This document shows positions 20,745-39,681 of a DNA stretch of 64,000 nucleotides, piece after piece. Made by a program: the position numbers and the translations under genes. The first letter of the stretch is position 1; each line of letters begins with the position of its first letter. Location: IMG/VR virus record IMGVR_UViG_3300035208_001992. One strand, written 5' to 3'. Source of the stretch: a virus (lineage: Duplodnaviria; Heunggongvirae; Uroviricota; Caudoviricetes). The notes under the pieces were generated by a model. It searched no databases. It saw only the letters and a program-made list of their open reading frames with translations, and had not been told where the DNA came from.

Positions 20745-21294
20745 TGCGGTAGTATCCTCTGTTGATGATTTTGTTGATCCAAAGCGGTATTGTCCAACGC
20801 AGATAGAACCTCGTACCGATCTTTGGTCGGTAGTAGATCACGCGCCAACTTGTATGCGACTTACTTATTGGCCATGACACACCAAAACCTGTCTTAAATC
20901 CAAGAGTCGTAGGCTTGTGCTTGTCATCGCAATACGAGCATGCGCATAGCTCGTGATGTTGCTCGAACAGGACGCCAAACGGCAAAGCGCGCTCGCGCAT
21001 TGGCGAGCAACAGAAGCGTCTCCATGATTCCAAGAAGCCTTCGATGTTCGCCTTGCCGACAGGGTTAGCCGAATGCACGTGGTATTCTGGAACAGGTCCA
21101 TGCGGATGTCTCTGTTGCAACGCTTTCACGAACTTGAGTCCAGTATCGTCACCGCCAAGATCATGATCGAGACTCATGCACGCTGGCAAGCCATTGATGC
21201 GCACATAATCAAGCGCTTCAACGCTCGAACGTACAAGCACGAAATGTCTATTTGGAACATCTCGCATATCGTCAAGATACAGGTTATAGCTCAT
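20737..21294 (-). CDS. cyclic-phosphate-processing receiver-domain protein with C-terminal extension (start refined to MSYNLYLDD)
   Basis: LYLDD.R..P, SLDHDLGGDDTG, VHSANPVG motifs. Confidence 0.8.
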   Translation of the reverse strand: MSYNLYLDDMRDVPNRHFVLVRSSVEALDYVRINGLPACMSLDHDLGGDDTGLKFVKALQQRHPHGPVPEYHVHSANPVGKANIEGFLESWRRFCCSPMRERALPFGVLFEQHHELCACSYCDDKHKPTTLGFKTGFGVSWPISKSHTSWRVIYYRPKIGTRFYLRWTIPLWINKIINRGYYRNA

Positions 21295-21967
21295 TTGTAA
21301 TTCCCTTGATTGCGGCTGCGACATCGTCAAATTTGAACCATCCATTTTCGACAACGTCAGCACACGTGAATTTAGTTCCGTCTTTGAAGTCAAGCAGCGC
21401 GGTTTCGTCATTCCAAACGGTCGTACCGAGCTTGTTGATGATATCATGGTAGTCCAATGAGAGCATACCAAATGTGAATTGAAACGCGTCCAAGAACATC
21501 GAACTGAACATCTGATCGCGCCAGTTAGCGTCCACGCGATCAACGATTGAGTTGAGATCTATTCTGTGCTTGAACATGACCAATTGATCATGCAAGGTTA
21601 TAGATCCAGGTTTTGCAATATACAGCTGATTAGGCTTAGTTTGGTCAGCGACAATGAACGGCATCGTTCGTGAGAAGTCACTTGTTGAATTTGCTCGGTC
21701 ACTAACGCGACCAGCGTACCTCATATTCAAGATCGGGTATGCAATGCTATTTATGAGTCTTGGTCTGCGATCATCCCACATACGGTCAAGATCGCTCATA
21801 GCTTCACTCACGTTGACCATAGTAGTCATAAATGTGCTGCGATCTGTCTCGATCTTGACGTCGAGTCCTTTCAGCTTGCATAGATTCATGCCAGGCGTGA
21901 TCGCTTGCTTCATCAGTGACTCAACAAAGTCTCTGCCAGTGATCTTCTCGAACGCACGACCTCTCAT
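21284..21967 (-). CDS. MxRHxxE-array member 1 (divergent leader MRGRAFE)
   Basis: Glu7, KLKGLDVKI beta motif, DVVENGWFKF C-terminal motif; GGAGG RBS. Confidence 0.7.
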   Translation of the reverse strand: MRGRAFEKITGRDFVESLMKQAITPGMNLCKLKGLDVKIETDRSTFMTTMVNVSEAMSDLDRMWDDRRPRLINSIAYPILNMRYAGRVSDRANSTSDFSRTMPFIVADQTKPNQLYIAKPGSITLHDQLVMFKHRIDLNSIVDRVDANWRDQMFSSMFLDAFQFTFGMLSLDYHDIINKLGTTVWNDETALLDFKDGTKFTCADVVENGWFKFDDVAAAIKGITNEL

Positions 21968-22009
21968 TGAGATACCTCCATCTATAAGATCCTTGCAAAG
22001 TTGCGACGT

Positions 22010-22963
22010 TTACAACTTGTTAACGTCTGTAGACATCGCTGTCATAATCACGTCTCGCGTAGACTCGTCAGCATCTGTGAACATATTATGTAACTGCCTA
22101 TTGTTGCTCATTTCTTGAGCAAGATCCATGAAGCGCTGATCTTCCATTGCAAGTAAGTTGCCTAATGCAACGTCAAAGTGACCATGGTTAGCTTGTATTC
22201 CAACATTGTATGCGATTGAGCCAAGGTCCATTACGTACTCATGATTCATCACAATTGGAGATTCAGATTGAACGTCACTAAGGTTGACAATTTCGTTTTT
22301 GACTTGGCTAACGTTTCGCTTTATCCGCGCTATGTAGATGCACTCAACTAAAGCCGTCAAATCAATATGCCCATTAGTGATCAAACGCAATAGGCCGAAC
22401 TTTTCTCCGCTAGTACGAATCAGCGCAGCTGGCTCACCGATGTAGTCGATCACAGCATCGTCAATCACATGGTCGACTCGCGCATCAAGTACGAGCTTGA
22501 CCATGTGAATTATTGCACGCAACTTAGCAGACACAGGTAAAGCTTCGATGAACTCTTCAGGACTTAAGTTCAGACTCACGGGTTCAATCAAGGTCCGTTG
22601 AGATGACCAGCTTGTCATTGCACCGTGACGTGATCCTGACGCGCTCCATTCGTCCTTCACATATGTGTCGTAGCCGACAGTCAACTTGCCGTCGATCAAA
22701 GACACGATCCCAATTGGAATGCGTACGCGATCAGAGATGCCGAACCAGGTCTCAAGATACATGAAGCTAACATATGCATGATCGTGCTCACCAATTTGCT
22801 CACGATCGAACACTTGGCGAAGCTCATAAATTCTGTCAGACTTCTGCGGTGGAACTATGTCACACTTAAGTCCAAGCAATTCAATTGGCTGGCGCTCTGA
22901 GCAATACGAAATCGCCCTATTGAGTTCCCAACCTGTTGTTCGTTCAGGCATGTGTCTAGCCAT
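22010..22963 (-). CDS. MxRHxxE-array member 2 (MARHMPE)
   Basis: Leader; IELLGLKC; EFIEALP. Confidence 0.85.
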   Translation of the reverse strand: MARHMPERTTGWELNRAISYCSERQPIELLGLKCDIVPPQKSDRIYELRQVFDREQIGEHDHAYVSFMYLETWFGISDRVRIPIGIVSLIDGKLTVGYDTYVKDEWSASGSRHGAMTSWSSQRTLIEPVSLNLSPEEFIEALPVSAKLRAIIHMVKLVLDARVDHVIDDAVIDYIGEPAALIRTSGEKFGLLRLITNGHIDLTALVECIYIARIKRNVSQVKNEIVNLSDVQSESPIVMNHEYVMDLGSIAYNVGIQANHGHFDVALGNLLAMEDQRFMDLAQEMSNNRQLHNMFTDADESTRDVIMTAMSTDVNKL

Positions 22964-23831
22964 CGAATTGCCTTCCGTTTGCTTGTATGATCAATTGCTT
23001 GTACAACTCGATCTCGTGCCTCAGCATCATTTCAGTGTCTCTGAATTTTAGTTGCTGCCAGTTACGCATAAAATCAGTGATAGATATGTTGATGCTCGGT
23101 GCAATCTGTTTGCTTTGTTGAATGACGCCGCTACTAACAACGTCACGCTTGTACGCGGTCAACACGAAACACTCACTACGGACGCATGCGTCGATCCATG
23201 TCTCATAGCGTTTTGACGGTGAAGTCCAACTTGCACCTTCTACTGTCTCACAGTGCATGATGTGCTTCATAGTCGCTAGGCACGCGTCATAATATGTCGC
23301 AAGACCATCCCGGTCATAATCGATGTTGAGCACTTTGTTCATGCATTGCAGCATCAAATAACCAAACCCGCGAAAGATCTGGTCGCGCTTGAGTTCAGCT
23401 GTCTCTTCCAAATTTCGTCTAATCAGCTCGATCGATTCTGGCATGTCATCATCGCCACGCATAAGATTGCTTGCCAAGCAACCGCGAGTCTGGCACCAAT
23501 AGGCCATGCTATGTATGTGCATAGAATGCGGACCATCGCCAACCAAATTACGCGTAAGCTTTCCTTGTCGCTCACTAAATTTGATATTCGCCGACGCGTA
23601 AGCTTGGACGTAGCATGGCAATATCATGTATGCTATGCTACTAACTGGCGGAATGATTCCATCGTTGCCTGCTTTAGCATAAAACCATTCAGCTAAGCTC
23701 TTCTCTATGTCTGGCTCAACATACAACGGGATCTGTATTCCACGGAAGTTCACGGTCTCGATTTCGCGAAGCTTGTTGAGTTGCGAACGCGTTTTAGCGA
23801 ACTCATCGACTTCATGCATATGTCTAGGCAT
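22956..23831 (-). CDS. MxRHxxE-array member 3 (MPRHMHE)
   Basis: Leader; VNFRGIQI. Confidence 0.85.
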   Translation of the reverse strand: MPRHMHEVDEFAKTRSQLNKLREIETVNFRGIQIPLYVEPDIEKSLAEWFYAKAGNDGIIPPVSSIAYMILPCYVQAYASANIKFSERQGKLTRNLVGDGPHSMHIHSMAYWCQTRGCLASNLMRGDDDMPESIELIRRNLEETAELKRDQIFRGFGYLMLQCMNKVLNIDYDRDGLATYYDACLATMKHIMHCETVEGASWTSPSKRYETWIDACVRSECFVLTAYKRDVVSSGVIQQSKQIAPSINISITDFMRNWQQLKFRDTEMMLRHEIELYKQLIIQANGRQFDG

Positions 23832-24489
23832 ATTTCAAAATCTCCGTTGTCATTGCTTTAGCGTCGAACTCGCCATTCGACACAAATTGTTCAAGCATGA
23901 ACGAGTTTGGACGCCGATGTTTGACTACATACGCAGTGTCACGATCGAAGTACACGCAACTACCGTTTTTGACAAAAACTGTATTATAGCCAACTCTGAC
24001 TTCATACTTGGTTGGGCGAGCTAAGTCGCAAAATAGTCCTAAAAGATGCGTAGCCATAACATAATCGATTGCCTTGAACTTAGCGTGATCTGGCTGCAAG
24101 GCAATCAGATCAGCAAGCGAACCGATCTTTGTAGTAGGATCGATTTGGTCCAATCTGCAATCGTCACGATTGTGCTCTTCCCAGTACACGCTCGGCATGC
24201 GATAATCTTCAACCATTGCAGTGAAGCCAAGAATTGGAGTGCTAACATAAGTACGCGTTTTAGAAGCAAGATGTACTGCATAGTCATTAAAGCACGTTCG
24301 CCAATCATCACGGATCAATATCATGCCGTCTTTGCGCGGCGCATTGAAGAACGCATCAAGCGTAGTCAGGTCACCTACGCTGTACTCAAGCTTGATCCCA
24401 TGCAGATCAATCTCGACTTTGTCTTCACGGCGATACAGCAATTTTCGGAACAGCTCATCGCTTTGGTTTTCAGCCATGCGCCGCGTCAT
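23824..24489 (-). CDS. MxRHxxE-array member 4 (MTRRMAE)
   Basis: Leader variant; IDLHGIKL; FVSNGEFD. Confidence 0.8.
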   Translation of the reverse strand: MTRRMAENQSDELFRKLLYRREDKVEIDLHGIKLEYSVGDLTTLDAFFNAPRKDGMILIRDDWRTCFNDYAVHLASKTRTYVSTPILGFTAMVEDYRMPSVYWEEHNRDDCRLDQIDPTTKIGSLADLIALQPDHAKFKAIDYVMATHLLGLFCDLARPTKYEVRVGYNTVFVKNGSCVYFDRDTAYVVKHRRPNSFMLEQFVSNGEFDAKAMTTEILKYA

Positions 24490-25181
24490 TCTTTGATCCC
24501 AAGAATATGTTCAATGATCGTATCTATGACTTTCAGCTGCGCAATCGAAAACCAGATTGTGCGATCACTATTGACTTTCCACGGCTGGTTGTCATTTGTG
24601 TGATCAACGCATAGGCTTGTTAGCCAAATCCCTGTTGGTACTTCACCTGCAATCAACTGACCATCATCATTGATGTTGTCTACGTTTGACAGCCATGGCA
24701 GCATCTGTCCATTGCATTGAATTGCAGCGCTGATCACGTTTCTCACAAGGTGGATTGCGACGCGCTTCTTGAGGTATTGTGGCATCTGATCAATTACTTC
24801 TTGCGCGCTAGCTGCCATGTCAATATCGAATGCAGCTTCATGAGGATGCGCACTAGACGCAGCATCTTGTTGCGATGAAGATATGTCATAGAAAACGCGC
24901 TCGTCATCACCTCCAAACACGAAGGCAAGGTGATCATAGTTCTCACGCGTATTGGCTGAGTTGAAACCAACGGGACGCCAAGATTCAACAACTGCAAATC
25001 TCAATGCAACACGAGCCACGTCCTTGTATCCGTGATTCTTCCAGCCAGTACTGTGATATCCGTCTATTTCGATGCTGCATGGCAGTCCATAAAAGCTCAA
25101 TGGATCGTTTTTCTTGCGCATCATCTGCCTGATCCATTCATCTGATTTCATCTTGATAGGCTCTAACATCGCGCGTGTCAT
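24486..25181 (-). CDS. MxRHxxE-array member 5 (MTRAMLE)
   Basis: Leader variant; LSFYGLPC; QEVIDQMP. Confidence 0.8.
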   Translation of the reverse strand: MTRAMLEPIKMKSDEWIRQMMRKKNDPLSFYGLPCSIEIDGYHSTGWKNHGYKDVARVALRFAVVESWRPVGFNSANTRENYDHLAFVFGGDDERVFYDISSSQQDAASSAHPHEAAFDIDMAASAQEVIDQMPQYLKKRVAIHLVRNVISAAIQCNGQMLPWLSNVDNINDDGQLIAGEVPTGIWLTSLCVDHTNDNQPWKVNSDRTIWFSIAQLKVIDTIIEHILGIKE

Positions 25182-25912
25182 GCTGTGTCTCCGCTCATAT
25201 AGTCGATTTCAACGATTCCAGCTTTTTCGAGTTGTTCCATCACGCCTTGTATCTTGCTTTCGATCAATCCTGGATTCTGCGGCTCACATCTTATGCCAGC
25301 AATAGCGAGTCGTTCAATGACATAGTCAAGTTGCAATGTGTGATCACTGAACAACTTAGCTAGTTCAAATGTTATTTGAGGCTTTGATCTTTTGGCATAG
25401 AACACGCCTTCTTTACGTGTGCTAAGCTCAAGTTCTTTGATCACATCTCTGACGCCTGGCAGGCCACGCATAGACGGCGCTGCTTGCCAAATAATTTGCT
25501 TAAGCAGTAAGCCAAGTGCGCTAGGTGGCAAGTCATCTATGATCTTTTGCGTTGTCCACGTTGTGTCAACAGGCTCTGTAAGCCGATAATCTTTGCGCGG
25601 ATACCGCATAAGAAGAGCATCACGCTTCGACTCATAAATCATGAACGGTGTCTTGTAGCGTACGCTGAACTCACTGTTGTAGCACTCTAAGGTCGCGTAG
25701 TATTCAATCTTGAGCCACGCCACTGCATATCTCAGAAAGTGACCATCATTTTCTTCTTCATCGACGTCACCGCGCATCGAAGCCATAGCTAACTCTGATG
25801 ACTCAAGTGTAGCGTCGAGCCCGAATAGCTTCAATGGCCCATGCTGCTCCAACTTCAATATGTATTCATATGCAGTTGGCGGTGCAACAGTTTCACACGC
25901 GTGCCTAGCCAC
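25178..25912 (-). CDS. MxRHxxE-array member 6 (MARHACE, GTG start)
   Basis: Leader; LKLFGLDA; QKIIDDLP. Confidence 0.85.
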   Translation of the reverse strand: MARHACETVAPPTAYEYILKLEQHGPLKLFGLDATLESSELAMASMRGDVDEEENDGHFLRYAVAWLKIEYYATLECYNSEFSVRYKTPFMIYESKRDALLMRYPRKDYRLTEPVDTTWTTQKIIDDLPPSALGLLLKQIIWQAAPSMRGLPGVRDVIKELELSTRKEGVFYAKRSKPQITFELAKLFSDHTLQLDYVIERLAIAGIRCEPQNPGLIESKIQGVMEQLEKAGIVEIDYMSGDTA

Positions 25913-26075
25913 TGACTTGTGCCTGATGAGCAGCAGCCATGACTCGGATCTCGAAGAGGCTATAATCGATTTGCAAGATGTCTAGAGATCTTCTTGCTCC
26001 ATGGTGGAAGATTGACCGAAGCGGCTGTGGTAGGTCAACTGACCGATCTGGAACTTCACAGGCGTGTCTTGACAT
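25905..26075 (-). CDS. MxRHxxE-array member 7, mini-gene (56 aa, MSRHACEVPDRSVDLPQ...QVSG)
   Basis: Not in ORF track; read manually; AAGGGAG RBS; stop overlaps next start by 8 nt like other members. Confidence 0.7.
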   Translation of the reverse strand: MSRHACEVPDRSVDLPQPLRSIFHHGARRSLDILQIDYSLFEIRVMAAAHQAQVSG

Positions 26076-26773
26076 GGTACGTGCTCCCTTCTCAATTTGT
26101 AGATGTATTTGCGAAATTGACGAAAGCTTAGTCGCCCATGAGCTAACAGCGCTTCAACTGGTATCTCATGCAGTTTCTTCGTGTAACCGTCACGCCAAAG
26201 TATTGTGCTACGTCCGTCACAGGTCTTCGTGCCAAGCATTCCGCGTGTCATACACCTGTTTTCAGAACGCAGCCAGATAAGGACGTTGGCGGCCACTGCT
26301 GGAATGATGAGATCAGCATGGTGCTCAATCACGTCTTGCCACGAATTGAACTGGCTTGCGTCAAAATCAAATTCTTCAGCTTTGTCAGTTTCAGTTATCG
26401 TGTTGCCAACGATTGAGTACTTGCGTATTGTGATCTTTGGCTTATACGTGTCTGAGCATACGTCAACCAGTGACATCGATCGATAGCTTTTTCCGAACTG
26501 CTCCAATTCGAGCCTTATGCTCATGACACCAGTTCGTCTAACATCTTTGCGACGTTCAGCTGTTTCTACTAGCTCGTTGATGCGCTCTTCGACTGACTCA
26601 TTCACGCGTGCATCATGGCTCATGTCATTGGCTTCAACGTCATCGTATGTAGGAACCACGCCACATGACTTGACAGAGAAGTCAAGACCGAGTATTCGCA
26701 CAATGCCACTTCGCAATTTGTAAGCCTTGCGCAGTTGAGCGTGAGGATCTATCTCACGCATGTGCCTAGCCAT
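25982..26773 (-). CDS. MxRHxxE-array member 8 (MARHMRE)
   Basis: Leader; VRILGLDF. Confidence 0.85.
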   Translation of the reverse strand: MARHMREIDPHAQLRKAYKLRSGIVRILGLDFSVKSCGVVPTYDDVEANDMSHDARVNESVEERINELVETAERRKDVRRTGVMSIRLELEQFGKSYRSMSLVDVCSDTYKPKITIRKYSIVGNTITETDKAEEFDFDASQFNSWQDVIEHHADLIIPAVAANVLIWLRSENRCMTRGMLGTKTCDGRSTILWRDGYTKKLHEIPVEALLAHGRLSFRQFRKYIYKLRREHVPCQDTPVKFQIGQLTYHSRFGQSSTMEQEDL

Positions 26774-27587
26774 TTCGGAAGCAGTATGTTGTTGCGAGTC
26801 TTCGGTTGCGTCTGAAATCGCTACCGCAGATCTCAGTCAATTTTGCTGATACAGCATTAGCAACGTCAAAATCGATTTTGCCATCGTTCACTGGTATCGC
26901 GAGTCTTTCTGCGCACCTTTTGAAATCTCTTCCACGCATGACAAATTCTGCGTTGTTGTCATCTTGGCTTTTTGCATAGCAAGTGCTCTCCAACGTTTCG
27001 GCGTCGCGCGCGTCATAGAGGCATCGATATAACACAGAGCTAAGTATGATCTCGCCATTGCCGGACGTATCAACATCGTTGATCAAGTCAAGACATAAAT
27101 CAGCGTCTTTCATCGTATACACGTGTTTCAAACCGCGTGATGTTAGCAGTTGTGAAACCATAGTGTTTGTCATGCCGCGCTCGTCCAGCGTTAAGTACTT
27201 CAACAGCGTTTCAGGCGTGTTACCAAATTTCATTTGATCAGCTAGAAACGGATGCGCTGCATGCAATTTGTAGTTGTAAGCGTCAGAATTTGGACAACAA
27301 TAAGTTGTTTGACCGCCTACTGACCAATCTCTTGGCAATGCAGAAATTAGACCTGCAACGTCATGTATTGGACCAAGCAATCTCCAGTTGATGAGTCGCC
27401 GTGCTTCACCACGAGTAGTCAAGCCAACTACTAAAGCTTCAATACTTTCCTCATCAACGTCATAGACGCTGAACAATTCAATGTCGATACCGCAGAAACG
27501 CATGATAGGACGATCTTTGACAGCACGCACAACATCAGTTGCTGTTGTGCAATCTGGATCGTATTGCTCAGCCATTCGTCTAGCCAT
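26766..27587 (-). CDS. MxRHxxE-array member 9 (MARRMAE)
   Basis: Leader; MRFCGIDI; VNDGKIDF. Confidence 0.85.
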   Translation of the reverse strand: MARRMAEQYDPDCTTATDVVRAVKDRPIMRFCGIDIELFSVYDVDEESIEALVVGLTTRGEARRLINWRLLGPIHDVAGLISALPRDWSVGGQTTYCCPNSDAYNYKLHAAHPFLADQMKFGNTPETLLKYLTLDERGMTNTMVSQLLTSRGLKHVYTMKDADLCLDLINDVDTSGNGEIILSSVLYRCLYDARDAETLESTCYAKSQDDNNAEFVMRGRDFKRCAERLAIPVNDGKIDFDVANAVSAKLTEICGSDFRRNRRLATTYCFRNG

Positions 27588-28299
27588 GTGTTAGCTCCAC
27601 TGCTTTTTCGAATACCAGATCTGTATTGAACTTACCATGTCCGTCTGTGATGTCATCTATGCTGTACTTCAGCTTCATACGAGTGTTTTCAACGCGTATG
27701 ACTTCGTCAAGAGACTCACCAGGCAGAATTGACGTCATAGTGTTGAAGCAGAACGGGCCATCTCCACCGCTTAGCCAAGGTTTTGCTAGTTCACAATCGT
27801 TTGAAAGGCGCACGCGCAGCTCCTTTATGAAGTCTGCACCAAGTATGTACGTGGCTGAACGCTCGGGCAAGCCTGCAACCAACGCCGCTAAGCTTGAAAC
27901 GCATTTGACGACTGAGTGTTCGCTCGGATCTATTGCTTGGCAGAAGAAAGCGCCTTCTTGGATGCGCTTTGGCGCCGATACGTAATAGAAACGTCGGTCA
28001 CATGCTGAAGTGAAGATGAATTGCTTGAATGGTCGTGCTGGCTCGCCTTTCATTGTTAGTGTCAAGAGAGGCTTCCACGCGTCACTGCCACGCGGAAACA
28101 GCATACTAGCTGCTGTGTCTTCAACAGCGAAATTTGAGAGCGCATATTGAAGCATTGTCAAGTGACTTGACGAGTTGACATTGTAGTCGACACCATGGAG
28201 TTTGATTTCTTTGCTTGCGATTAGCATGTCAATGATCAACGCTGCGTACTCAATAGGATCGCTGGGTACAGTGTTGCGTTCACATGCATGCCTAGCCAT
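27580..28299 (-). CDS. MxRHxxE-array member 10 (MARHACE; start refined)
   Basis: Leader; IKLHGVDY; ALVAGLP; DITDGHGKF. Confidence 0.85.
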   Translation of the reverse strand: MARHACERNTVPSDPIEYAALIIDMLIASKEIKLHGVDYNVNSSSHLTMLQYALSNFAVEDTAASMLFPRGSDAWKPLLTLTMKGEPARPFKQFIFTSACDRRFYYVSAPKRIQEGAFFCQAIDPSEHSVVKCVSSLAALVAGLPERSATYILGADFIKELRVRLSNDCELAKPWLSGGDGPFCFNTMTSILPGESLDEVIRVENTRMKLKYSIDDITDGHGKFNTDLVFEKAVELTHG

Positions 28300-29002
28300 C
28301 GTTGTCGGCTCCAAGCAGCTTCAATGCACTAGCGATGTTCGATCGCAATTGATCATTGCTCGAGATGAGCACACCTGTGCTATGCAATGATCCAACAAGA
28401 TCTCGCAACGTGTTCTCAAGCTGCTTCACGCGATCGCTATATGCTTGCAAGGTACGTGGCGGCTCGAAATCGATGTTGAAGATGCGTCTACGAGTGTCTT
28501 TTCTTGACGCAAGCAGAAACTTCTTGCTGTCCTGGTTAAGATCACCGACCAACGTCAATTGACATACTGCGCTTAAGCTTTCAAAATACTCACCATTGTT
28601 AGTGAATACGATGCGCTTGGATCCATTGCCACTATTGATCTGGTTGAATATCATTGAAGCAGGATTGCGTACAGAGTCAAAATGAGCAGCACTCTTCAAG
28701 TACGGAAACAGATCAAGGTATATGATGATCCCTTGAGCGCTTGCGCGACCAAGCAATGGGTTACCTGGGCCATTGCCATCATGCGTCACGGACACGTTGT
28801 GTAGGCAAAACACAGACGGATCTATGCGTGTCCGCCAGCGTCCAGGTATGACTAAGACGCTACGTGACTTGTCTGCGTCAGCATAAGCAGTGATAAGCCA
28901 TGATGCGAATGAACTGAACAACGCAGCATTGCTCTCAATTCCAGTCAAATCAATGACCGTGTGCTGTTGAAGCGTTCCAAACATGTTTTCAAGATCAAGC
29001 AT
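28292..29002 (-). CDS. hypothetical protein, only non-member gene inside the array
   Basis: 236 aa, lacks leader; possible degenerate alpha/beta P-loop-like fold (IIIYLD, IVFTNN). Confidence 0.7.
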   Translation of the reverse strand: MLDLENMFGTLQQHTVIDLTGIESNAALFSSFASWLITAYADADKSRSVLVIPGRWRTRIDPSVFCLHNVSVTHDGNGPGNPLLGRASAQGIIIYLDLFPYLKSAAHFDSVRNPASMIFNQINSGNGSKRIVFTNNGEYFESLSAVCQLTLVGDLNQDSKKFLLASRKDTRRRIFNIDFEPPRTLQAYSDRVKQLENTLRDLVGSLHSTGVLISSNDQLRSNIASALKLLGADNDG

Positions 29003-31300: not shown

Positions 31301-31345
31301 TTGCGCTCCTTTCTATTGCTAATAGTCATTTACTCAGTCGCAAGT

Positions 31346-31981
31346 TTACGCATGGTTAACGTCTAACATTTTGAATGAATCTTGTAAGATCTTAGCAATT
31401 TTAGCATCGTCAATCTCGTGACCAGTCACAATCTCTGCGATGTCATCAACGATCGCTCTATGTCCATCAGAGCTGATCAATGTCAAGTCGTAAGATTCAT
31501 TGTCATCACTGAGATTCACGACTACTCGTCTTTTAGCAATGCAACCAGCAACGCGATAATAGCGAGCTCTCATCAGCACCTTTAGAGACTTCAATCTGTC
31601 TGTAAGCGGTAAGTTGTCGATGTAGTGCTGCAAACCAACAGGTGCTTGACTAGGCCGGCCTTGCACGGCGTTAATCACAGCCGACTCGAAAAGCGTTGTC
31701 AATGAACATGGCATCGGCACACGCACAATTGTCGACGTGGTCAGTAATGTACTGTCGGCTAAACAGGTCCAGCCAGGTTGCAAATAAAAGAAGTCACCAG
31801 AATTGTCGAAACCAATTCGGGCGCCAACGCTTATTCTGAGCACTGTGTTAATGCCAAATAGTCTTACGATGCAATCCACATATTGAATATACTCGAACTC
31901 GTTTGTCATCACTGGCCCACGTCGAAACATGCCAACGATGATTTGGTCGATCATCAGTTGCTCATGCGCGTGTCTGGCCAT
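31346..31981 (-). CDS. MxRHxxE-array member 14 (MARHAHE; start refined)
   Basis: Leader; VRLFGINT; QHYIDNLP; AGGAGG RBS. Confidence 0.85.
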   Translation of the reverse strand: MARHAHEQLMIDQIIVGMFRRGPVMTNEFEYIQYVDCIVRLFGINTVLRISVGARIGFDNSGDFFYLQPGWTCLADSTLLTTSTIVRVPMPCSLTTLFESAVINAVQGRPSQAPVGLQHYIDNLPLTDRLKSLKVLMRARYYRVAGCIAKRRVVVNLSDDNESYDLTLISSDGHRAIVDDIAEIVTGHEIDDAKIAKILQDSFKMLDVNHA

Positions 31982-32513
31982 TGCGTTGCCTCCTAGGCTT
32001 CGTGATCCTAGCGATGATAGGAGCGATCTTGTTTTCGTTGATACTGCCGTCGCTGATGACGTCACTTAATTTCACTATTTGCGACTTGAGCGTTTTGTTG
32101 AAACCAATGATTACACTACGGCTGTATCCAACGATCGTACTGTTACGCGTGTAGCAGACACTGACGTATTTGTTGTCTTTCACGCCCATCTCTTCGATGC
32201 ATGCTCTGACCGCATGCTCGATTAGATCCACTTTGATTTCGCTCAACACATTCTTGATCACGCTTTTAGCGATGTTCAACGGATCAACTATGGTGCTAGT
32301 GAAAAGATAGTAGTAGGCGTCATCTCCTTGGTGAAGATGAGCAACATCGACTCTGCCACGCCAAGGAGCTGCGCTTGGAACAGCATACAGCAGACCAACA
32401 GGATCCAAACGCAATTCAAAGATGATGCCGTCCAGCTTGAACTCTTGACCAGCGCATACAGCGCGTCGCACGCGCGAGCCGTTAGTTAGTGGTTCATACG
32501 CGTGTCTACTCAT
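31962..32513 (-). CDS. MxRHxxE-array member 15 (MSRHAYE; start refined)
   Basis: Leader; FKLDGIIF; DVISDGSIN. Confidence 0.85.
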   Translation of the reverse strand: MSRHAYEPLTNGSRVRRAVCAGQEFKLDGIIFELRLDPVGLLYAVPSAAPWRGRVDVAHLHQGDDAYYYLFTSTIVDPLNIAKSVIKNVLSEIKVDLIEHAVRACIEEMGVKDNKYVSVCYTRNSTIVGYSRSVIIGFNKTLKSQIVKLSDVISDGSINENKIAPIIARITKPRRQRNGQTRA

Positions 32514-33153
32514 CTTCGTGCAACCTCTCGCGGTAACTGCCAAGCACCCACTTAAGAACAGCCTCACCATCGATTTTGCTATTCACTGTGATGTCGGCTA
32601 TTTTGACGTTTGTTCTTTCTATGTCAAAATGCCTTTTGTAGCGCTTATTTGGTGGCAGCCATAACGCAGATAAGCTTAAGCGATTATTGCACCATACAGA
32701 AAAGATCAAATCGCTATGCACATACATACTATGCGTGCGCCTAACAGCTATGGAACTTGGCAGTTCATCGTTGAACGGTAGCAAACTTGATTTCACGAGC
32801 ATATCAATGATGCTTGACTTCGTTGGGCCAGGCATGCCATTCGTCAGCTGCATCTCATCAGTTGCAGTAAAGGCATACATTCCAGTGGCAGTGCGCGAGT
32901 ACACAATGTCATTGCGCTCATAAGATTCACGTGCAATGTTGATCTTTGACAATGATTCGGGATCATGACAGTCAATCATCACACGTCCAAAATCATGCGT
33001 GGCTTCTTCACCATCTTCATTCATGAAATAGAATGGCTCTTCATGTGAGCAGACTAAGGCATTCAACCCACAAATTTCGATTGTTGCTGGCTTGCTGACA
33101 AGTGATCGAGCCCAGTCTATAGGTTGCATTCGTTCGTACATGTGCCTAGCCAT
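32506..33153 (-). CDS. MxRHxxE-array member 16 (MARHMYE; start refined)
   Basis: Leader; IEICGLNA; DITVNSKID. Confidence 0.85.
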   Translation of the reverse strand: MARHMYERMQPIDWARSLVSKPATIEICGLNALVCSHEEPFYFMNEDGEEATHDFGRVMIDCHDPESLSKINIARESYERNDIVYSRTATGMYAFTATDEMQLTNGMPGPTKSSIIDMLVKSSLLPFNDELPSSIAVRRTHSMYVHSDLIFSVWCNNRLSLSALWLPPNKRYKRHFDIERTNVKIADITVNSKIDGEAVLKWVLGSYRERLHEDE

Positions 33154-33310
33154 GTGATGCAGTCTCCATTTGTTCGCGATCATGCAGCATTCGAGCAAGC
33201 ACTTGGTCACTAACTTGCAAGGTTTGGAATGGCTTCAAAGTTCCGTTCATTTGCATAAAACTCACAACGATTTCTACTATGCCTGGCACTTCACATGCGT
33301 GCCTAGCCAT
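33146..33310 (-). CDS. MxRHxxE-array member 17, mini-gene (54 aa, MARHACEVPGIVEIVV...ASHG)
   Basis: Not in ORF track; read manually; 8-nt overlaps at both ends. Confidence 0.75.
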   Translation of the reverse strand: MARHACEVPGIVEIVVSFMQMNGTLKPFQTLQVSDQVLARMLHDREQMETASHG

Positions 33311-33485
33311 GAGACATCAACCTAGCTGCAGGTGGCCTGATCTGTATAAGTGATTCGGTGAACTGTTTGAACATCTTCTCAGCATCGACTTGCCCAAACG
33401 TTGACACTTCGTCAAACGCGCACCAAACTCGCGTGCCGCCGCGCAATCGCTGAACATCAGGTACTTCACAACCGTGTCCAGCCAT
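33303..33485 (-). CDS. MxRHxxE-array member 18, mini-gene (60 aa, MAGHGCEVPD...; start refined)
   Basis: AGGAG RBS; contains LRGGTRVWCAFDE. Confidence 0.75.
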   Translation of the reverse strand: MAGHGCEVPDVQRLRGGTRVWCAFDEVSTFGQVDAEKMFKQFTESLIQIRPPAARLMSHG

Positions 33486-33630
33486 TTGAGATCTCCTGTC
33501 GACGACGTCTTTCTTCCATTGCTTCATTTATCCATTTTGGTGACAAGTCATAGACTCGTATCATGCGCCCGTCATTGCGCTCAATTGTCATGACATTTTC
33601 GTCTTTCACTTCTGCGCCGTGTCTAGCCAT
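33466..33630 (-). CDS. MxRHxxE-array member 19, mini-gene (54 aa, MARHGAEVKDENVM...WTRL)
   Basis: Not in ORF track; read manually; GGAGG RBS. Confidence 0.75.
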   Translation of the reverse strand: MARHGAEVKDENVMTIERNDGRMIRVYDLSPKWINEAMEERRRRQEISNGWTRL

Positions 33631-34262
33631 TTGGCAACCTCCGCTTCTTTGAATTTGTCAAAGCATATAAGTGCTCGCTCGAACAGGAAGTGTTCGTCAA
33701 GAGCGCCGTCTTTGATGCATTCATCTAACTTACAAATAGGCATAGGCATGATCATGCGTCTGTCACTTGTCATTATCGCAAAGCCGATCAGCAAGTCATG
33801 ACTACTTAAGTTGTATGTAATCAGCGAACGCAACAACGTATCACGAGAAATGCTGGTGATTTTTTTGATGCTAGATAAGATGTCGTAGCGCGCGATGATT
33901 GAAGATCTGACGTGGCAACCGATTACGTTAGAAATCAAGTTGTCAGGAGCGCAATCAATCAACTCTTGCGCGTTAATGCTGGATGGAACATTGACACGAT
34001 TAGACATGTTGTACGTGCCAGCGCCATCGTCCTCTGTCGAATTGAATCGTGCAATAACGCTTTCACCAAGATCATGCCTGAATAACCATGTCACGTTGAG
34101 CCATTGACTGTCCGCAATTATGACGCGATCTTCATCGTAATCTGAGCCACAACGCCTCCACACTTTGCCATTAAGTCCATGCATAGTCGCGTCTATTGGA
34201 CAAGCTAACGCGTTCATCCAGCGAGTCATTGGTTGACACTGTTCGTATGCGTGTCTAGGCAT
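33606..34262 (-). CDS. MxRHxxE-array member 20 (MPRHAYE; start refined)
   Basis: Leader; ATMHGLNG; QELIDCAP; CIKDGALD. Confidence 0.85.
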   Translation of the reverse strand: MPRHAYEQCQPMTRWMNALACPIDATMHGLNGKVWRRCGSDYDEDRVIIADSQWLNVTWLFRHDLGESVIARFNSTEDDGAGTYNMSNRVNVPSSINAQELIDCAPDNLISNVIGCHVRSSIIARYDILSSIKKITSISRDTLLRSLITYNLSSHDLLIGFAIMTSDRRMIMPMPICKLDECIKDGALDEHFLFERALICFDKFKEAEVAKWLDTAQK

Positions 34263-34911
34263 GGGTAGTATACAGCTTTCCAAATACAGCTTCAATCTGG
34301 TCTTTGGTTTGCTGCTTGAACGACAAGACCAAACGCATTATTCTATAGCGATCGAAATCACCATCACGCAACAGCGACGACAATGGAGCGCTTGCTGTTT
34401 CGGAGACGTTGAAGTGCGTGCTTGTCGCGCCAATCACAGCAAATTTTACATGCAACGCGTCTTGCGCGTCTTCACTGATGACAACGTCCATCTTTGAGAC
34501 GCAGTCACTCACATAGCTACTACGCCGAGACAAATCGAACGTTTTCACAACGTAATCCTGAAAGGCATATCGCAGCAACTGCAACTTCTTGGACTTCGGA
34601 AGTTCGTCGACAATCTGCTGTGGCTCGCGACAATCCAATGGCTGACGTATACTAGTGAATCGGTCATTGCCTTCACGCCAGTTAGCCACAAAGTAATCGC
34701 GAGAACTCAAATATGATGTGTCAATAATCAAGCTCTTGAATGGGAATGTCATAAGCATGTCGCACTTGTCTTGATCTGTACCAGGCACTCCAATGAGCCA
34801 ATCGAGCCTGAGCACACAGTTGACTCCGCAAAGTTTGACGTGTTGCGGTGTAGCAAGGCACTTCACTTGATCTTCCCATATTTGTCGATGTTCGACTGCA
34901 TGCCTGCTCAT
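34255..34911 (-). CDS. MxRHxxE-array member 21 (MSRHAVE)
   Basis: Leader; VKLCGVNC; QQIVDELP; LLRDGDFD. Confidence 0.85.
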   Translation of the reverse strand: MSRHAVEHRQIWEDQVKCLATPQHVKLCGVNCVLRLDWLIGVPGTDQDKCDMLMTFPFKSLIIDTSYLSSRDYFVANWREGNDRFTSIRQPLDCREPQQIVDELPKSKKLQLLRYAFQDYVVKTFDLSRRSSYVSDCVSKMDVVISEDAQDALHVKFAVIGATSTHFNVSETASAPLSSLLRDGDFDRYRIMRLVLSFKQQTKDQIEAVFGKLYTTHA

Positions 34912-35540
34912 GCTTGTGCTCCAACGCGTTTGTCTTCGACAATTAAGCGCTTTTCAAGTAGTGACAGACTTAGCAATTTAGGCAAGTTGAACTTACCGTC
35001 TTCGCACACGTCAGCAATAGTGATCACAGCAACACCATGATGCTTGACATAGTCACTCAACCTTCTTGTGATATAGCATTCTTTGAGGTCACAGCTGACA
35101 ACGATTGACATCAAGCCAAACGTGATCTCGTATCCGATCGATCTGGCGTACAATATAAGGGCGTTAGTCAAGATCGACTCGAACACATTTCTGAGGTCAG
35201 TCGCAGGTATTGCGTCGACCAATGATTGAAGCGACGAGCTGCATATTGCATCAGCATGTCCGTTGATGTACTTAGATGCGGCGTCATGCTGGTAGATGAA
35301 AACATCGCTCTCGTCATCATACCAAGCAATAGCACAACCGTACTTGTTTTGACCGTAGCTCAACGCAAGACGGTCAGTCGTCTTAGGAACGAGCTCGTCG
35401 AACTTGCGCGTTGCATCTGCATTGAACATGCGTGCGCTCAAATCAATCAAGCCAACGTGTACAACGTTGTTGTGTTGGATCATTTTGAGAAGATCTTGGT
35501 ATTTGAGCACTTTACCGATCTCGCACATATGTCTAGCCAT
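34908..35540 (-). CDS. MxRHxxE-array member 22 (MARHMCE)
   Basis: Leader; QSLVDAIP; DVCEDGKFN. Confidence 0.85.
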   Translation of the reverse strand: MARHMCEIGKVLKYQDLLKMIQHNNVVHVGLIDLSARMFNADATRKFDELVPKTTDRLALSYGQNKYGCAIAWYDDESDVFIYQHDAASKYINGHADAICSSSLQSLVDAIPATDLRNVFESILTNALILYARSIGYEITFGLMSIVVSCDLKECYITRRLSDYVKHHGVAVITIADVCEDGKFNLPKLLSLSLLEKRLIVEDKRVGAQA

Positions 35541-36228
35541 GTCCGATTACTCCTACCTCGTCAGATGGCACTGTTACTCCAGCAGTGTTGAATCCGTTCA
35601 ATGTAAGCTGCTCAAGCACATACTTGTCAACGCGCTTCACGTTCTCGACTAAGCTAGACATTGTACAGATTTTCTTGGCGTGGACAAGCACATCATAGTC
35701 ACCGTTGCGCCAGACTAACTTTGTGAATTTGTTGTCGCTTCTTACCATTCTTATGTTCGGCAGGTCGAGAATCAATGATGCAACATATTCAACTATGGTG
35801 AACAAAATCTGAGACAATGCATAATAGTGTTGTTGCGTGCCAGTGAATTCATCAACAAGATCTTGAAGTCTGCCACAAAACGCTGTTGGTAATTTGTACC
35901 AGCTATTCTCAGAACCGGAACTGAACAGCTGCATGTCAGGTTGGTATGTGCCACGACAAATTCGCGCTAGCGTGACTGATCTCGTAATGAACTTAAGAGG
36001 AGCACTAAGATCAAGATTGAGCATCGCAACGCTAACCGGCATGATATTGAACTCATTGTCAAGCATGCTCACTTGCTCTTCACCAGACATACGAGTCATT
36101 GTGAAGAATGCACTGCTTACTGTGGCATCAATTCCGCAAAGTTTGATCGACAATTGCTGGTTGCCGCGATCGAGATACTCCACCAAGCGATCACGTGGAC
36201 TGACTCGTTCTGTCATGTGTCTAGCCAT
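35533..36228 (-). CDS. MxRHxxE-array member 23 (MARHMTE; start refined)
   Basis: Leader; IKLCGIDA; QDLVDEFT; GGAGG RBS. Confidence 0.85.
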   Translation of the reverse strand: MARHMTERVSPRDRLVEYLDRGNQQLSIKLCGIDATVSSAFFTMTRMSGEEQVSMLDNEFNIMPVSVAMLNLDLSAPLKFITRSVTLARICRGTYQPDMQLFSSGSENSWYKLPTAFCGRLQDLVDEFTGTQQHYYALSQILFTIVEYVASLILDLPNIRMVRSDNKFTKLVWRNGDYDVLVHAKKICTMSSLVENVKRVDKYVLEQLTLNGFNTAGVTVPSDEVGVIGHG

Positions 36229-36983
36229 TACAGCAACCTCCGCGTATGATGCAGCTTCCAAATTTCGTCGTCTTTCACAGCAATGATGTCTTTCAACTTT
36301 GCCTCATCAAATTTCACAGCTTTAGCAGCAGACAGCGTGATGACGTCGACTCGACGTTCAGCGCTCGCGTTTGTCATGACGACAAAGTCTTTCTTGACTC
36401 GACGTATATGGAATCTAGAGCCTTCCAATGAGTACGCCAGCACATAGTTGAGCAGCATTCTAGCTAACAGCGCGTCTTTGTCTTTAGCGCTGAGCTCATT
36501 CAACTGTTGCTTAATCACGTCCTGTCCAACGACCAGGTTGAATGGTTCTAAATCGCATGCTGGGTCTACGCGCCCGAACACGCGTCTACCACCATCAAAA
36601 TTCGAACCATATAGCAAAGTCACCACATCGAATTGGTCGTCGGACGTTGCCGCAACAAACGGGACGTCGATCGACGTTGCAGTCTGTGTGGTCGACTTTA
36701 TTGATGCGAAGAACATTTCAGCAAAGCTACTGTAGCTCTTCCAACCGTCACGCGTTGTAACTGCATTGATCGGAAAATGAGCAGTGCTTGGATCAGAGCA
36801 ATCGTCTAGTACGAGCTCAACTGTTTCTCTAAGATTGCTATCGACATATGTAAGTCTCTTTGCCGCTGAAGTAACGATGATCGGCAATCCATCGATCTCT
36901 AACTCGACTGGATCAGCGTACTTGATGAGTGCTTCAGCAAGCATATCTCGTCCACAAGCCTTTTCAGTCATATGCCTAGGCAT
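36228..36983 (-). CDS. MxRHxxE-array member 24 (MPRHMTE)
   Basis: Leader; LEIDGLPI; QQLNELS. Confidence 0.85.
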   Translation of the reverse strand: MPRHMTEKACGRDMLAEALIKYADPVELEIDGLPIIVTSAAKRLTYVDSNLRETVELVLDDCSDPSTAHFPINAVTTRDGWKSYSSFAEMFFASIKSTTQTATSIDVPFVAATSDDQFDVVTLLYGSNFDGGRRVFGRVDPACDLEPFNLVVGQDVIKQQLNELSAKDKDALLARMLLNYVLAYSLEGSRFHIRRVKKDFVVMTNASAERRVDVITLSAAKAVKFDEAKLKDIIAVKDDEIWKLHHTRRLL

Positions 36984-37623
36984 GATGCCTCAACAGTTTC
37001 TTGCGCTCCAATTCAGCGCGTAAGAACGTGAGCGGATGCTGGTACGACGCAAGTGTTCTGACGCTGCTGACAACTACATGCGTTGAAAGGAAGAGTGCAG
37101 CATCATCATTTCCAATAGGCTTGGCATAGCAAGTTTTTGTTCCTCCATCTTTGCAAAAGTTAGCGAGTGCTGCCAAGACGCATTTGCAACCAAACCAGAA
37201 TTTGGTCTCATTGCTTAGCATGTCAAACGCTTCTCGTATGCTATTGACGGATCGATATGATACTGCTTGCATCTCAATCGTTGATGACCTAGCCCAATCA
37301 GATGCTGTTTCAGCGTTCATCACTGCGATGTAAAACAAGCCAGATCCAAAGTTTGTGGCGAGGAAAGAATGCCAGTCAGTTGGAAGACGCTTCTCGTCCA
37401 AGCTGCCATCTGTCAGTTGCGCGTCACCGAGGTTGAACATCATGTTGGACGACGTGTTCTTTGCAAAAGCATATGCACTCTTCACAACTGTTTCAACATT
37501 AACGCGACATGGACGGACGTTCATTTGCAGATTGCCGAATAGTGGCACGCGTTCTTCTTGGCATTCGAACACTCGTTTGATCTGGTCTTCGAACGTTACT
37601 TGCTCAGCCATGTGTCTAGCCAT
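36976..37623 (-). CDS. MxRHxxE-array member 25 (MARHMAE)
   Basis: Leader; VPLFGNLQM; SIREAFDMLS. Confidence 0.85.
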   Translation of the reverse strand: MARHMAEQVTFEDQIKRVFECQEERVPLFGNLQMNVRPCRVNVETVVKSAYAFAKNTSSNMMFNLGDAQLTDGSLDEKRLPTDWHSFLATNFGSGLFYIAVMNAETASDWARSSTIEMQAVSYRSVNSIREAFDMLSNETKFWFGCKCVLAALANFCKDGGTKTCYAKPIGNDDAALFLSTHVVVSSVRTLASYQHPLTFLRAELERKKLLRHHA

Positions 37624-38293
37624 GAAGTGGGCTCCAATTCCGTATCAGTTCATTGCGTAGTTTAGCATATGGACGATCTGGCTCATGTATGATGCTTGCA
37701 ACGTCACTAACAATGACGCTACCCTTTTGAGTATCATACAGTTCGATCAATCCGTCTGCGTTCAAGTGCATTCCAATGCGTTGCGGTACGTTACCGCATG
37801 CACCACCGAATTCCTGAGCAACATACATGTTGAGCTCATCTTGGTACTCGCGTGTGATGAACATGTCTTTGTGACATTTGCTCAAGCAATTAAACGCGTC
37901 TTGTATCGACTGCACTTCTAAATATGGCACAAGCTCACTGTCATTTCTTGTAGCATACATCCAAGCTAGCGCACTTGGACGTCTTAGCGCAAAATGCTGT
38001 GACCTATACGATATGCCGTCCACTGACAGCAGACCATAACGACTCAAATCTTGTTTGGTCACAATCCTGTCATCGCTTGAAGGCCACATAATATATGATT
38101 CAATAATTGGCCTGCTAACTTGGTCAGGCATGTTCACGAACATCTTACGTTCTATAGGCTCGCGTTGATTGAGCGACGTGTAGATCTTTATCTTCAGCTC
38201 TTTGTTCAACTCGAATGTCTGTGGTTCACTATTGTGTAGGACGCAAAGACAATGGAAGAAGCTTGGTCTAGTTTCAGTAGCATGCCGACTCAC
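37616..38293 (-). CDS. MxRHxxE-array member 26 (MSRHATE, GTG start)
   Basis: Leader; AAGGAG RBS; close paralogue of member 28. Confidence 0.85.
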   Translation of the reverse strand: MSRHATETRPSFFHCLCVLHNSEPQTFELNKELKIKIYTSLNQREPIERKMFVNMPDQVSRPIIESYIMWPSSDDRIVTKQDLSRYGLLSVDGISYRSQHFALRRPSALAWMYATRNDSELVPYLEVQSIQDAFNCLSKCHKDMFITREYQDELNMYVAQEFGGACGNVPQRIGMHLNADGLIELYDTQKGSVIVSDVASIIHEPDRPYAKLRNELIRNWSPLHG

Positions 38294-38320
38294 AGCAGAT
38301 CTCCTTTGTTGATGACGTTG

Positions 38321-38890
38321 TTAGAACCAGCGTTCAACCTCTTCAATATCTATCATGTGATTCGACACCAGTGCGCTGAGCATTATCTCAGGTGAGACGA
38401 AGAGCATCTCTTCAATGAAGCAGTGAGCGACTAGTCCAATGTCTTTTCCATGCGTGTTAGCAGTCAGGCGAGTCAAATGTGCTTGCCTGACTGCTTTGAT
38501 CCGCTTACCTTCATGACCAATCTTGCTGAATCTTGATCGTCGCAAAACGCCTTTGACCATCTCAGTAGCAACTATGCCTTGATGCGCTTCTGACATGTCA
38601 TCAATCAACTGCTGTGGATCAGCGCTGTGCATGGTAAGTTCTTCGTCAATCATTATCATGTACTCGCTGCTCAACTTCTTGTGGCCGATCATGACGTTGA
38701 ACTCATTGACGCGCTTCAATCGAACAGCATGTGATAACTCCAAGTCACTCTCATCGCCTTCGTACACGTTTTCAAATGTGTCGATGACCATAGTGCATTC
38801 GATGTCATGGAACATCACCGTTTGCTCTTCACGCAAGTTGCTGGCCAATCGCGTCCAGCACGACAGTTCTTCTGGCATATGCCTAGACAT
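38321..38890 (-). CDS. MxRHxxE-array member 27 (MSRHMPE; start refined)
   Basis: Leader; VMFHDIEC; QQLIDDMS. Confidence 0.85.
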   Translation of the reverse strand: MSRHMPEELSCWTRLASNLREEQTVMFHDIECTMVIDTFENVYEGDESDLELSHAVRLKRVNEFNVMIGHKKLSSEYMIMIDEELTMHSADPQQLIDDMSEAHQGIVATEMVKGVLRRSRFSKIGHEGKRIKAVRQAHLTRLTANTHGKDIGLVAHCFIEEMLFVSPEIMLSALVSNHMIDIEEVERWF

Positions 38891-39548
38891 GAGTACGACT
38901 CCATTGACGTACAAATTCATCGTAGAATTTGACGTACGGTTCATCAACCTCATTGATGATCTGTGACACGTCACTAATGATCACTTCTTCACAGGTGGAG
39001 TACGTTACGTCTAAGACATCTTCATTTATGACAACATTCAAAAACGTGCGTACGTCATTTATGCCGCGCTTCACTGAAAGATCTATTGCGAGTCTAAGGA
39101 AGAACTCGCTCGTGATGATCACGTCTTTGGTTAGCTTACTCAAGCACTCCCAAGTTTGTTTGATGGATCTGATGTCTTTGCACAACACGCTTTTGGATCC
39201 TTCAGCAAACGGATAAATCCTGGCATATGCGTTTGGCGTTCTCAACAGCATCTCTTCTGAAGCGAGTGATTCACTAGATGCCATCAGCAAGACGAATCGT
39301 GACGCTGGTCCTAATTCTGGATCAGTTCTAGTTTCGTTGGTTGTCCACGTTGCCCAGCCGTTGACTATTGGATGATGCAGTGTCTTGGATGTGTCTTGTG
39401 GGTACAGTATGTCATCAATAGATGCTGGAGTAGCGCTAACGCGCATCTGCAAATCACTGTTCAATACGAATATCTGCGGATCGCAGCGTTTGATGTCACA
39501 TAGGCAATTGTAGATGTCATCACGATCTTCGAATGCATGTCTAGCCAA
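38883..39548 (-). CDS. MxRHxxE-array member 28, first gene of the array (MARHAFE, TTG start)
   Basis: Leader; AAGGAG RBS. Confidence 0.85.
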   Translation of the reverse strand: MARHAFEDRDDIYNCLCDIKRCDPQIFVLNSDLQMRVSATPASIDDILYPQDTSKTLHHPIVNGWATWTTNETRTDPELGPASRFVLLMASSESLASEEMLLRTPNAYARIYPFAEGSKSVLCKDIRSIKQTWECLSKLTKDVIITSEFFLRLAIDLSVKRGINDVRTFLNVVINEDVLDVTYSTCEEVIISDVSQIINEVDEPYVKFYDEFVRQWSRTHV

Positions 39549-39593
39549 CTGTTGATCTCCTTCAGTAGCAGTGATGATACCTAGTACTAATCA

Positions 39594-39640: not shown

Positions 39641-39681
39641 AAACAAAAGAGGCCGGCACCCTCATCGGATACCGGCCTCTT
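39641..39681 (-). terminator. intrinsic terminator downstream of nrdJ
   Basis: AAGAGGCCGGCACC...GGATACCGGCCTCTT stem with A-tract on the left. Confidence 0.8.

Follow-up and report, generated by a model that had tools for sequence, protein, structure and literature searches.

For the majority of giant-phage genes no function has been assigned, and arrays of such genes are usually annotated as unrelated hypothetical proteins. The locus described here raises the question of whether one such array is, in fact, a single family. We analysed a 64,000-nucleotide stretch of Caudoviricetes DNA (IMG/VR record IMGVR_UViG_3300035208_001992; the whole stretch is called the window below), in which minus-strand genes form an unbroken row, flanked by a class II ribonucleotide reductase gene (39707-42211, minus strand) on one side and by a cREC_REC-like gene (20737-21294) on the other. 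The row consists of 24 long genes bearing a common N-terminal leader, one long leaderless and unrelated gene (28292-29002), and four leader-only mini-genes. The leader, M-x-R-H-[AM]-x-E, heads 22 of the long open reading frames (ORFs); 21284-21967 carries a variant of it, and 30023-30675 is split by a frameshift. A reading made from the letters alone (the sequence-only reading) had proposed that the bodies behind the leader arose by repeated tandem duplication of one scaffold marked by three weak motifs. Our results suggest, with a probability that we put at roughly 80%, that at least 22 of the 24 long genes go back, as a tandem family, to a single ancestral gene, which encoded a soluble protein of ~200 residues, and that this family has not been described before.

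All 19 motif strings quoted in the sequence-only reading were found in the minus-strand translations, in the order given there. Strict patterns for the three motifs were scored against 500 within-protein shuffles in 26 ORFs. Motif 1 (h-x-h-x-G-h, h being hydrophobic, in the first 60 residues) occurred in 16 of them (shuffles: mean 1.8, maximum 7), motif 2 (Q-x-x-[ILV]-D-x-x-P) in 8 (mean 0.17, maximum 2), and motif 3 ([DN]-G-x-h-[DNQ], C-terminal half) also in 8 (mean 0.73, maximum 3). The three motifs are far above chance, and their order is the same throughout. Motif 1 had been placed near the N-terminus, and its strict form always lay at residues 17-39; the distance from the start to its Gly is regular (30.8 +/- 3.2 residues), and the stretch between motifs 1 and 2 is rich in indels and spans 54 to 144 residues across members. 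The scaffold itself had been given as 210-250 amino acids (aa), which proved too narrow, as member sizes range from 183 to 343 aa.

An alignment of 56 sequences, comprising the window members and relatives from other phages, showed the conservation column by column. The Gly of motif 1 is present in 47/56 sequences; motif 2 has Q in 33/56, D in 36/56 (with E in 8 more) and P in 29/55; motif 3 has D/N in 48/55, G in 35/54 and a hydrophobic residue in 51/54. Further conserved positions, beyond those that had been listed, are a Trp (33 of the 34 sequences not gapped at that column), a Lys (26/48) and an Asp in a beta-turn (47/51). The leader counts are 50/56 for Arg, 46/55 for His and 51/55 for Glu. 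At the conserved Gly, Gln, Asp, Pro and Lys every synonymous codon is in use, indicating that selection acts on the protein and that the copies diverged long ago, and speaking against a DNA element or gene conversion in the recent past. Leader codons likewise vary synonymously (AGA, AGG and CGN for Arg; both codons each for His and Glu), and both leader and core are maintained by selection on protein rather than on DNA.

Plain BLASTP was significant for only three pairs among the 26 ORFs, which is why the family resembles a set of unrelated cassettes; pairwise identity within the alignment is 10-20%. If the bodies were indeed unrelated cassettes behind a common leader, as in the T4 internal proteins, the motifs would be chance look-alikes picked by eye, and the presence of 28292-29002 and of the four mini-genes, which are truly unrelated to the family, would agree with such a picture. 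Profile comparisons contradicted it for most members. In a window-only test, the first 8 residues were removed, a profile hidden Markov model (HMM) was built from the other ORFs, and the left-out ORF was compared with 300 of its own shuffles; at most 3 of the 300 scored as high for 20 of the 26 ORFs. The test was enlarged to 54 bodies from four phages, again without the leader, and whole BLASTP clusters were left out so that close relatives could not rescue a member. Under these conditions 18 of the 24 window members scored above all 200 shuffles, and four, those starting at 26766, 27580, 22956 and 31346, were borderline (1-4/200 each). One scaffold in place of unrelated cassettes was thereby upheld for most of the long members, and it did not extend to the pair 37616/38883, the two of the 24 that the HMM failed to recover.

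Profile-profile comparison gave a similar result. When each group was aligned with the rest by hhalign, P ranged from 2.7e-9 (34255) to 0.025, as against 0.09-0.83 for reversed-sequence controls; the 28995 group reached P=3.5e-5 over its full length, and the borderline groups lay at 4e-4 to 0.025. The two halves of the proteins were also scored apart. The N-part (after the leader through the hairpin of motif 1) was above all shuffles in 17/23 members and the C-part (motif 2 to the end) in 14/23, so that the signal is more than an extended leader. Given that leader-free profiles recover 18-22 of the 24 members, that each half scores alone while reversed controls fail, that motif order and spacing are fixed, and that further members turn up in other phages when the family profile is searched, we regard unrelated cassettes as extremely improbable.

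The new members came from a search of 1.84 billion representative proteins, at E up to 0.001, with a profile made from the 24 long members. It returned 34 matches, namely the 24 query proteins and 10 new ones, with nothing outside the family. All 10 begin with the same leader, and most have all three motifs in order. Those that were looked up sit in tandem, overlapping arrays on other metagenomic contigs, which come from at least three further phages, all uncultured. In two long contigs, of 135 kb and 102 kb, a class II ribonucleotide reductase gene directly precedes the array, as in the window; with 64-68% identity between the reductases, the phages are distinct but fall into one clade. The family is thus common to a small clade of uncultured jumbo phages and keeps the same genomic position. 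Array proteins were found on contigs of up to 305,891 bp, and the phage is an uncultured one of ~300 kb. The related phages have about 9 and about 15 array members versus 24 in the window. The contigs L001-L003, like the cluster variant P0006 on the 278-kb contig, show no difference from the window, and the remaining relatives are saturated with respect to dN/dS.

Some true body homologues in the relatives have no leader or start at its second, internal Met (L027 1569-2222, L029 8484-9167, L032 10787-11497), and hence leader and body can separate. The leader of L029 9160-10008 ends in Asp instead of Glu. Other searches were nearly silent: megablast of the whole array gave no match among GenBank phages, a scan of IMG/VR and metagenome contigs for the junction DNA pattern gave single chance matches only, a protein-pattern scan with the best conserved member yielded no relative in the metagenome contigs, and word-indexed protein searches with the family alignments brought back little besides proteins of the window itself. 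In Pfam, PHROGs, NCBIfam and PADLOC there were isolated weak single-member matches and no family common to members, and a sequence-profile search of the PDB had no match at E up to 1.

The genes of the array, all on the minus strand, are listed below from array gene 1 onward. For each, n/200 is the number of shuffles scoring as high as the left-out member, and bits are the leave-out HMM score.

38883..39548, minus: array gene 1, 221 aa, TTG start, leader; 37616-38293 subfamily; body HMM 23/200; subfamily hhalign P=0.17.
38321..38890, minus: core member, 189 aa; 15.9 bits, 0/200; N-part and C-part each 0/200.
37616..38293, minus: member of the 38883 subfamily, 225 aa, GTG start, leader; body HMM 183/200; only the modelled C-terminal half is family-like.
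36976..37623, minus: core member, 215 aa; 10.2 bits, 0/200.
36228..36983, minus: core member, 251 aa; 9.1 bits, 0/200; C-part 0/200.
35533..36228, minus: core member, 231 aa; 15.1 bits, 0/200; BLASTP to 25178-25912 at 3e-5.
34908..35540, minus: core member, 210 aa, strict motifs 2 and 3; 32.2 bits, 0/200.
34255..34911, minus: most typical core member, 218 aa, all three motifs, modelled; 34.4 bits, 0/200; hhalign P=2.7e-9.
33606..34262, minus: core member, 218 aa; 9.0 bits, 0/200; C-part 0/200.
33146..33630, minus: three overlapping leader-only mini-genes, 54, 60 and 54 aa, not of the long family; the 60-aa one scores like its own shuffles.
32506..33153, minus: core member, 215 aa; 16.7 bits, 0/200; both halves 0/200.
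31962..32513, minus: core member, 183 aa; 16.1 bits, 0/200.
31346..31981, minus: probable member, 211 aa; 4/200; hhalign P=4.4e-4; C-part 0/200.
30656..31300, minus: core member, 214 aa, GTG start; 14.6 bits, 0/200.
30023..30675, minus: frameshift-broken member; C fragment 0/200; intact relative L027 2569-3198 at 1e-18.
28995..30026, minus: core member, 343 aa, C-terminal extension of ~115 aa; 0/200; hhalign P=3.5e-5 over 187 columns; orthologue L029 4039-4908.
28292..29002, minus: embedded leaderless gene, 236 aa, non-member; HMM 102/300; hhalign P=0.13; orthologue L029 4911-5645, 40% identity.
27580..28299, minus: probable member, 239 aa; 3/200; hhalign P=7.8e-4; N-part 0/200.
26766..27587, minus: probable member, 273 aa; 1/200; hhalign P=0.011; N-part 0/200.
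25982..26773, minus: core member, 263 aa; 8.1 bits, 0/200; hhalign P=9.8e-4.
25905..26075, minus: fourth leader-only mini-ORF, 56 aa; overlaps the 3' end of 25982-26773 out of frame and ends in the usual 8-nt junction.
25178..25912, minus: core member, 244 aa, GTG start; 22.2 bits, 0/200.
24486..25181, minus: core member, 231 aa; 16.9 bits, 0/200; both halves 0/200.
23824..24489, minus: core member, 221 aa; 17.6 bits, 0/200.
22956..23831, minus: probable member, 291 aa, nearest relative 28995-30026; 4/200; N-part 0/200, C-part 27/200; hhalign P=0.025.
22010..22963, minus: core member, 317 aa, C-terminal extension; 23.0 bits, 0/200; orthologue L029 10001-10975.
21284..21967, minus: last and best conserved member, 227 aa, leader M-R-G-R-A-F-E; 9.3 bits, 0/200; orthologue L029 11028-11735, 45-48% identity.

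The predicted structure of a typical member was consistent with a common core. AlphaFold2 modelled 34255-34911 from the 24-member alignment with a mean predicted local distance difference test score (pLDDT) of 69.6 and a predicted template-modelling score (pTM) of 0.65; the single-sequence model of ESM Atlas had a pTM of 0.61. In the AlphaFold2 model, the motif blocks reached a pLDDT of 88-94, compared with 36-45 for residues 41-90, which fall between motifs 1 and 2. Gly29 of motif 1 sits at the hairpin turn between strands 23-27 and 30-36. Q98-D102 form a short helix, and P105 caps a long helix (106-124) of a C-terminal alpha/beta domain, in which the conserved D151 lies in a beta-turn between two strands and D183-G-x-F-D187 precedes the last helices. 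The model thus depicts what may be a constant core with a variable insert. No known fold could be named for it: Foldseek found nothing in the PDB and BFVD at E up to 0.001, the ESM Atlas search reached a template-modelling score of 0.38 or less, and VIA-align against 48,161 PDB chains gave a best Z of 5.0. There was a weak likeness to class I chaperones of type III secretion, whose alpha-beta-beta-beta-alpha order is also seen in the C-terminal domain of the model (residues ~105-205). Eight such chaperones were among the top 50 PDB representatives, with Z of 3.3-4.3 over ~70-80 residues, values within the tool's range for unrelated models; they have no sequence similarity to the family and no counterpart to its N-terminal hairpin or variable insert.

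Several acidic and basic positions are strongly conserved, and the C-terminal domain weakly resembles nucleases (D212 at Z 3.2 and 4.8; EcoRI, DpnI and McrBC at Z 3.4-3.6). The array could on these grounds be an enzyme family, for example of nuclease-like alpha/beta proteins, with the conserved Asp, Asp and Lys as active site and with copies that differ in substrate. All these Z values, however, are 5 or lower and are rated as common arrangements by the tool itself, and no match to Pfam, NCBIfam, PHROGs or PADLOC speaks for an enzyme. The conserved Asp, Gly and Pro lie in modelled turns and helix caps, as structural residues would. The conserved Asp (47/51) is not followed by a conserved (D/E)-x-K, which occurs in 12/56 sequences at scattered positions, and a PD-(D/E)xK nuclease was rejected for that reason. 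We consider an enzyme family very unlikely.

The two genes that were not recovered, 37616-38293 and 38883-39548, are clear paralogues of each other (BLASTP 3e-28), and one further paralogue is present in L027. They could mean that at least two types of long body are mixed in the array, with a second type, represented by these two and L027 937-1560, that differs from the main family in the origin of its N-terminal half or of its entire body and to which the leader was joined as a portable module. In line with this, the subfamily fails the body HMM, its profile-profile P of 0.17 is like that of controls, its N-terminal 120 residues are modelled at pLDDT <50, and the leader is found on mini-proteins as well as being missing from some true body homologues, which makes leader and body separable. 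On the other hand, the sole hhalign match of the subfamily is motif 2, in register, and both size and array position agree with the family. AlphaFold2 of 37616-38293 (56-sequence alignment) gave a pLDDT of 58.5 and a pTM of 0.38, with residues 131-220 at pLDDT 72-87; this part has the same helix and strand order as the 34255 model. Among the 48,161 PDB chains, 11 of the top 50 hits were common to the two models, where ~0.05 would be expected by chance, and the rank-1 chain and its range were identical. The models, built from overlapping family alignments and so not independent of each other, support, without proving it, a C-terminal domain of 37616-38293 in common with the family. We consider a second body type rather unlikely, and the pair would be candidate members of the family.

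Several points nevertheless weigh against the proposed explanation. Besides the BLASTP result, the homology case is built from profiles and from many weak, consistent signals. The strict motif patterns were written after the data had been seen, which makes leave-out profile recovery the stronger test. The support for 22956-23831 comes from its N-terminal part only, and 37616-38293 and 38883-39548 were not recovered by the family profile in either the body HMM or hhalign (P=0.17). The proposed fold is drawn from one model with pTM 0.65 and one with pTM 0.38, for which the family alignments overlapped, and no known domain or structural match indicates a function for the members.

How the array would have grown was examined next to its relatives. 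The suggestion of tandem duplication with strong diversification was borne out by similarity decay along the array and by turnover between related phages. Similarity falls with distance in the array (Spearman -0.23; 0/5000 permutations as low). Orthologues in L029 were found only for the distal half (28995 to 21284), roughly collinear, and none for the proximal 15 genes, so that the phage of the window has the larger array. The orthologues are 25-45% identical versus 54-67% for flanking genes. This pattern fits repeated local duplication, loss and fast divergence; the arms race expected in the sequence-only reading may lie behind it.

The members appear to be soluble, mildly acidic proteins and show no catalytic signature. 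In the mechanism that we propose, the conserved core would serve as a scaffold, and the variable insert and surface would give each paralogue its own target. We give about even odds to the array being a repertoire of binders or inhibitors of host factors. The common leader, with its almost invariant final Glu, would hand all members to one machine, most likely for packaging into the prohead, trimming by the head protease, and injection with the DNA, as for T4 internal proteins. That the leader is a tag for head packaging and head-protease trimming is, by this analogy, possible but doubtful. Taken together, these steps would make the array a leader-addressed effector library on a single scaffold: about two dozen variants of a new fold, each with a hypervariable insert for one host defence or factor, routed to the head, cut after Glu and injected before gene expression. 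We put this combined proposal forward tentatively and think it, as a whole, somewhat improbable. If true, the library would be to phages what a diversified immune-evasion repertoire is elsewhere; it would exceed the T4 set of internal proteins in size and differ from it in construction.

The comparison with T-even internal proteins (Ip1-3) is instructive in both directions. These are likewise clustered genes that look non-essential, with one short conserved N-terminal leader ending in Glu, and their set differs between related phages, as it does here. They have the packaging leader only in common, and in T4 each inhibits one variant of a host-defence enzyme, GmrSD (PMC12373910, PMC3012670). 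In contrast to their lack of homology beyond the leader, the bodies here appear to be one family; there are 3-10 copies of internal proteins compared with 24 members here, and the leader of the array has 7 residues and a different sequence. No sequence similarity links the T4 proteins to array members, with which no PHROG or Pfam family is common, and packaging and cleavage would hold for the array by analogy. Giant phages are already known to carry tagged arrays of paralogues; what appears to be new is a tagged array whose bodies, unlike T4 internal proteins, share one scaffold, in a family without a match in Pfam, PHROGs, NCBIfam, PADLOC or the PDB.

The ejection and inner-body proteins of giant phages (phiKZ_IP, PF12699; SPN3US gp53/gp54) are also multi-copy homologues in jumbo phages and are cut after A/S/G-x-E (PMC10052503); PF12699 had no match at E up to 0.1 in any of the 26 ORFs. 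The head protease of the giant phage SPN3US cleaves after A-x-E (PMC10052503), and the last three residues of the leader fit A-x-E in about half of the members. Three findings speak against packaging. First, in half of the leaders the third-last position is occupied by Met instead of Ala, Ser or Gly. Second, the propeptides reported for giant phages have 20-254 residues (PMC10052503), and one of 7 residues would be shorter than any of them. Third, the array sits among nucleotide-metabolism and replication genes; it adjoins nucleotide-metabolism genes, unlike the inner-body proteins, and not head genes.

Whatever the function, 18 kb of orphan genes become one object with an alignment, a profile, and a model with a constant core and a variable region. 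A result for one member would speak for all, and the role of the tag and the role of the bodies become separate questions. If the bodies are target-specific inhibitors, the array would be a ready-made catalogue of probes for host defence systems.

The remaining genes of the row do not belong to the family or are altered members of it. The leaderless gene 28292-29002 was considered as a family member and ruled out, as its hhalign alignment is out of register and scores like a reversed control. It is a foreign gene, and the family that it represents is just as orphan. Its place directly behind the long-extension member 28995-30026 is the same in L029 (4911-5645 after 4039-4908); the two genes may form a functional pair. 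A P-loop in the extension of 28995-30026 was rejected, because the residue next to G-A-G-K is Ser in the window and Leu in the orthologue. No PHROG matched 28995, 28292 or their orthologues in additional scans.

The four mini-ORFs (33146-33630 and 25905-26075; 54-60 aa) consist of the leader, often followed by C-E-V, and have no family body; similar mini-genes are present in the relative L027 at 2215-2569. In 30023-30675, a frameshift near 30540-30560 separates an N fragment with leader and hairpin (30484-30675) from a C fragment with motifs 2 and 3 (30023-30541). Independent assemblies show the identical frameshifted sequence, which makes it either a pseudogene or a gene that needs recoding.

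Adjoining array genes mostly overlap by 8 nt. At these junctions (for example 22956-22963, 26766-26773 and 36976-36983) the TAG stop of the upstream gene sits within codons 2-3 of the next leader (N-C-T A-G-R), which gives the upstream proteins a C-terminal His-Gly or His-Ala. The last codons of the upstream gene also hold the ribosome-binding GGAG. One further feature marks the start of the array's own transcription unit:

39647..39681, minus: terminator-like hairpin, 15 bp; between the reductase gene and the array; kept in L029.

Since this hairpin follows the reductase gene and no comparable hairpin lies inside the array, the array looks like one long transcription unit. After the strong terminator hairpin, a T-run and a block of ~25 nt are nearly identical between 39549-39706 (minus strand) and L029 3727-3830, and this conserved stretch may be the promoter region of the array.

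At the other end, the cREC_REC-like gene 20737-21294 (minus strand) comes directly after the array and overlaps its last gene by 11 nt; its orthologue in L029 is 54% identical (PF20274). A PDB sequence search with three large neighbouring ORFs gave nothing useful. In L031 (the 102-kb contig), a TubZ/PhuZ-like tubulin, a Tad2-like protein, a thymidylate synthase and a dUTPase are encoded near the array at 13539-17742, and the tubulin raises the question of whether the clade builds a phage nucleus. The window is phage DNA, as a helicase, a thymidylate kinase and a terminase fragment surround the array. The ORF at 1079-2083 (plus strand) matches only positions 408-642 of the 940-position profile of the terminase large subunit, and the terminase gene may be split or interrupted there.

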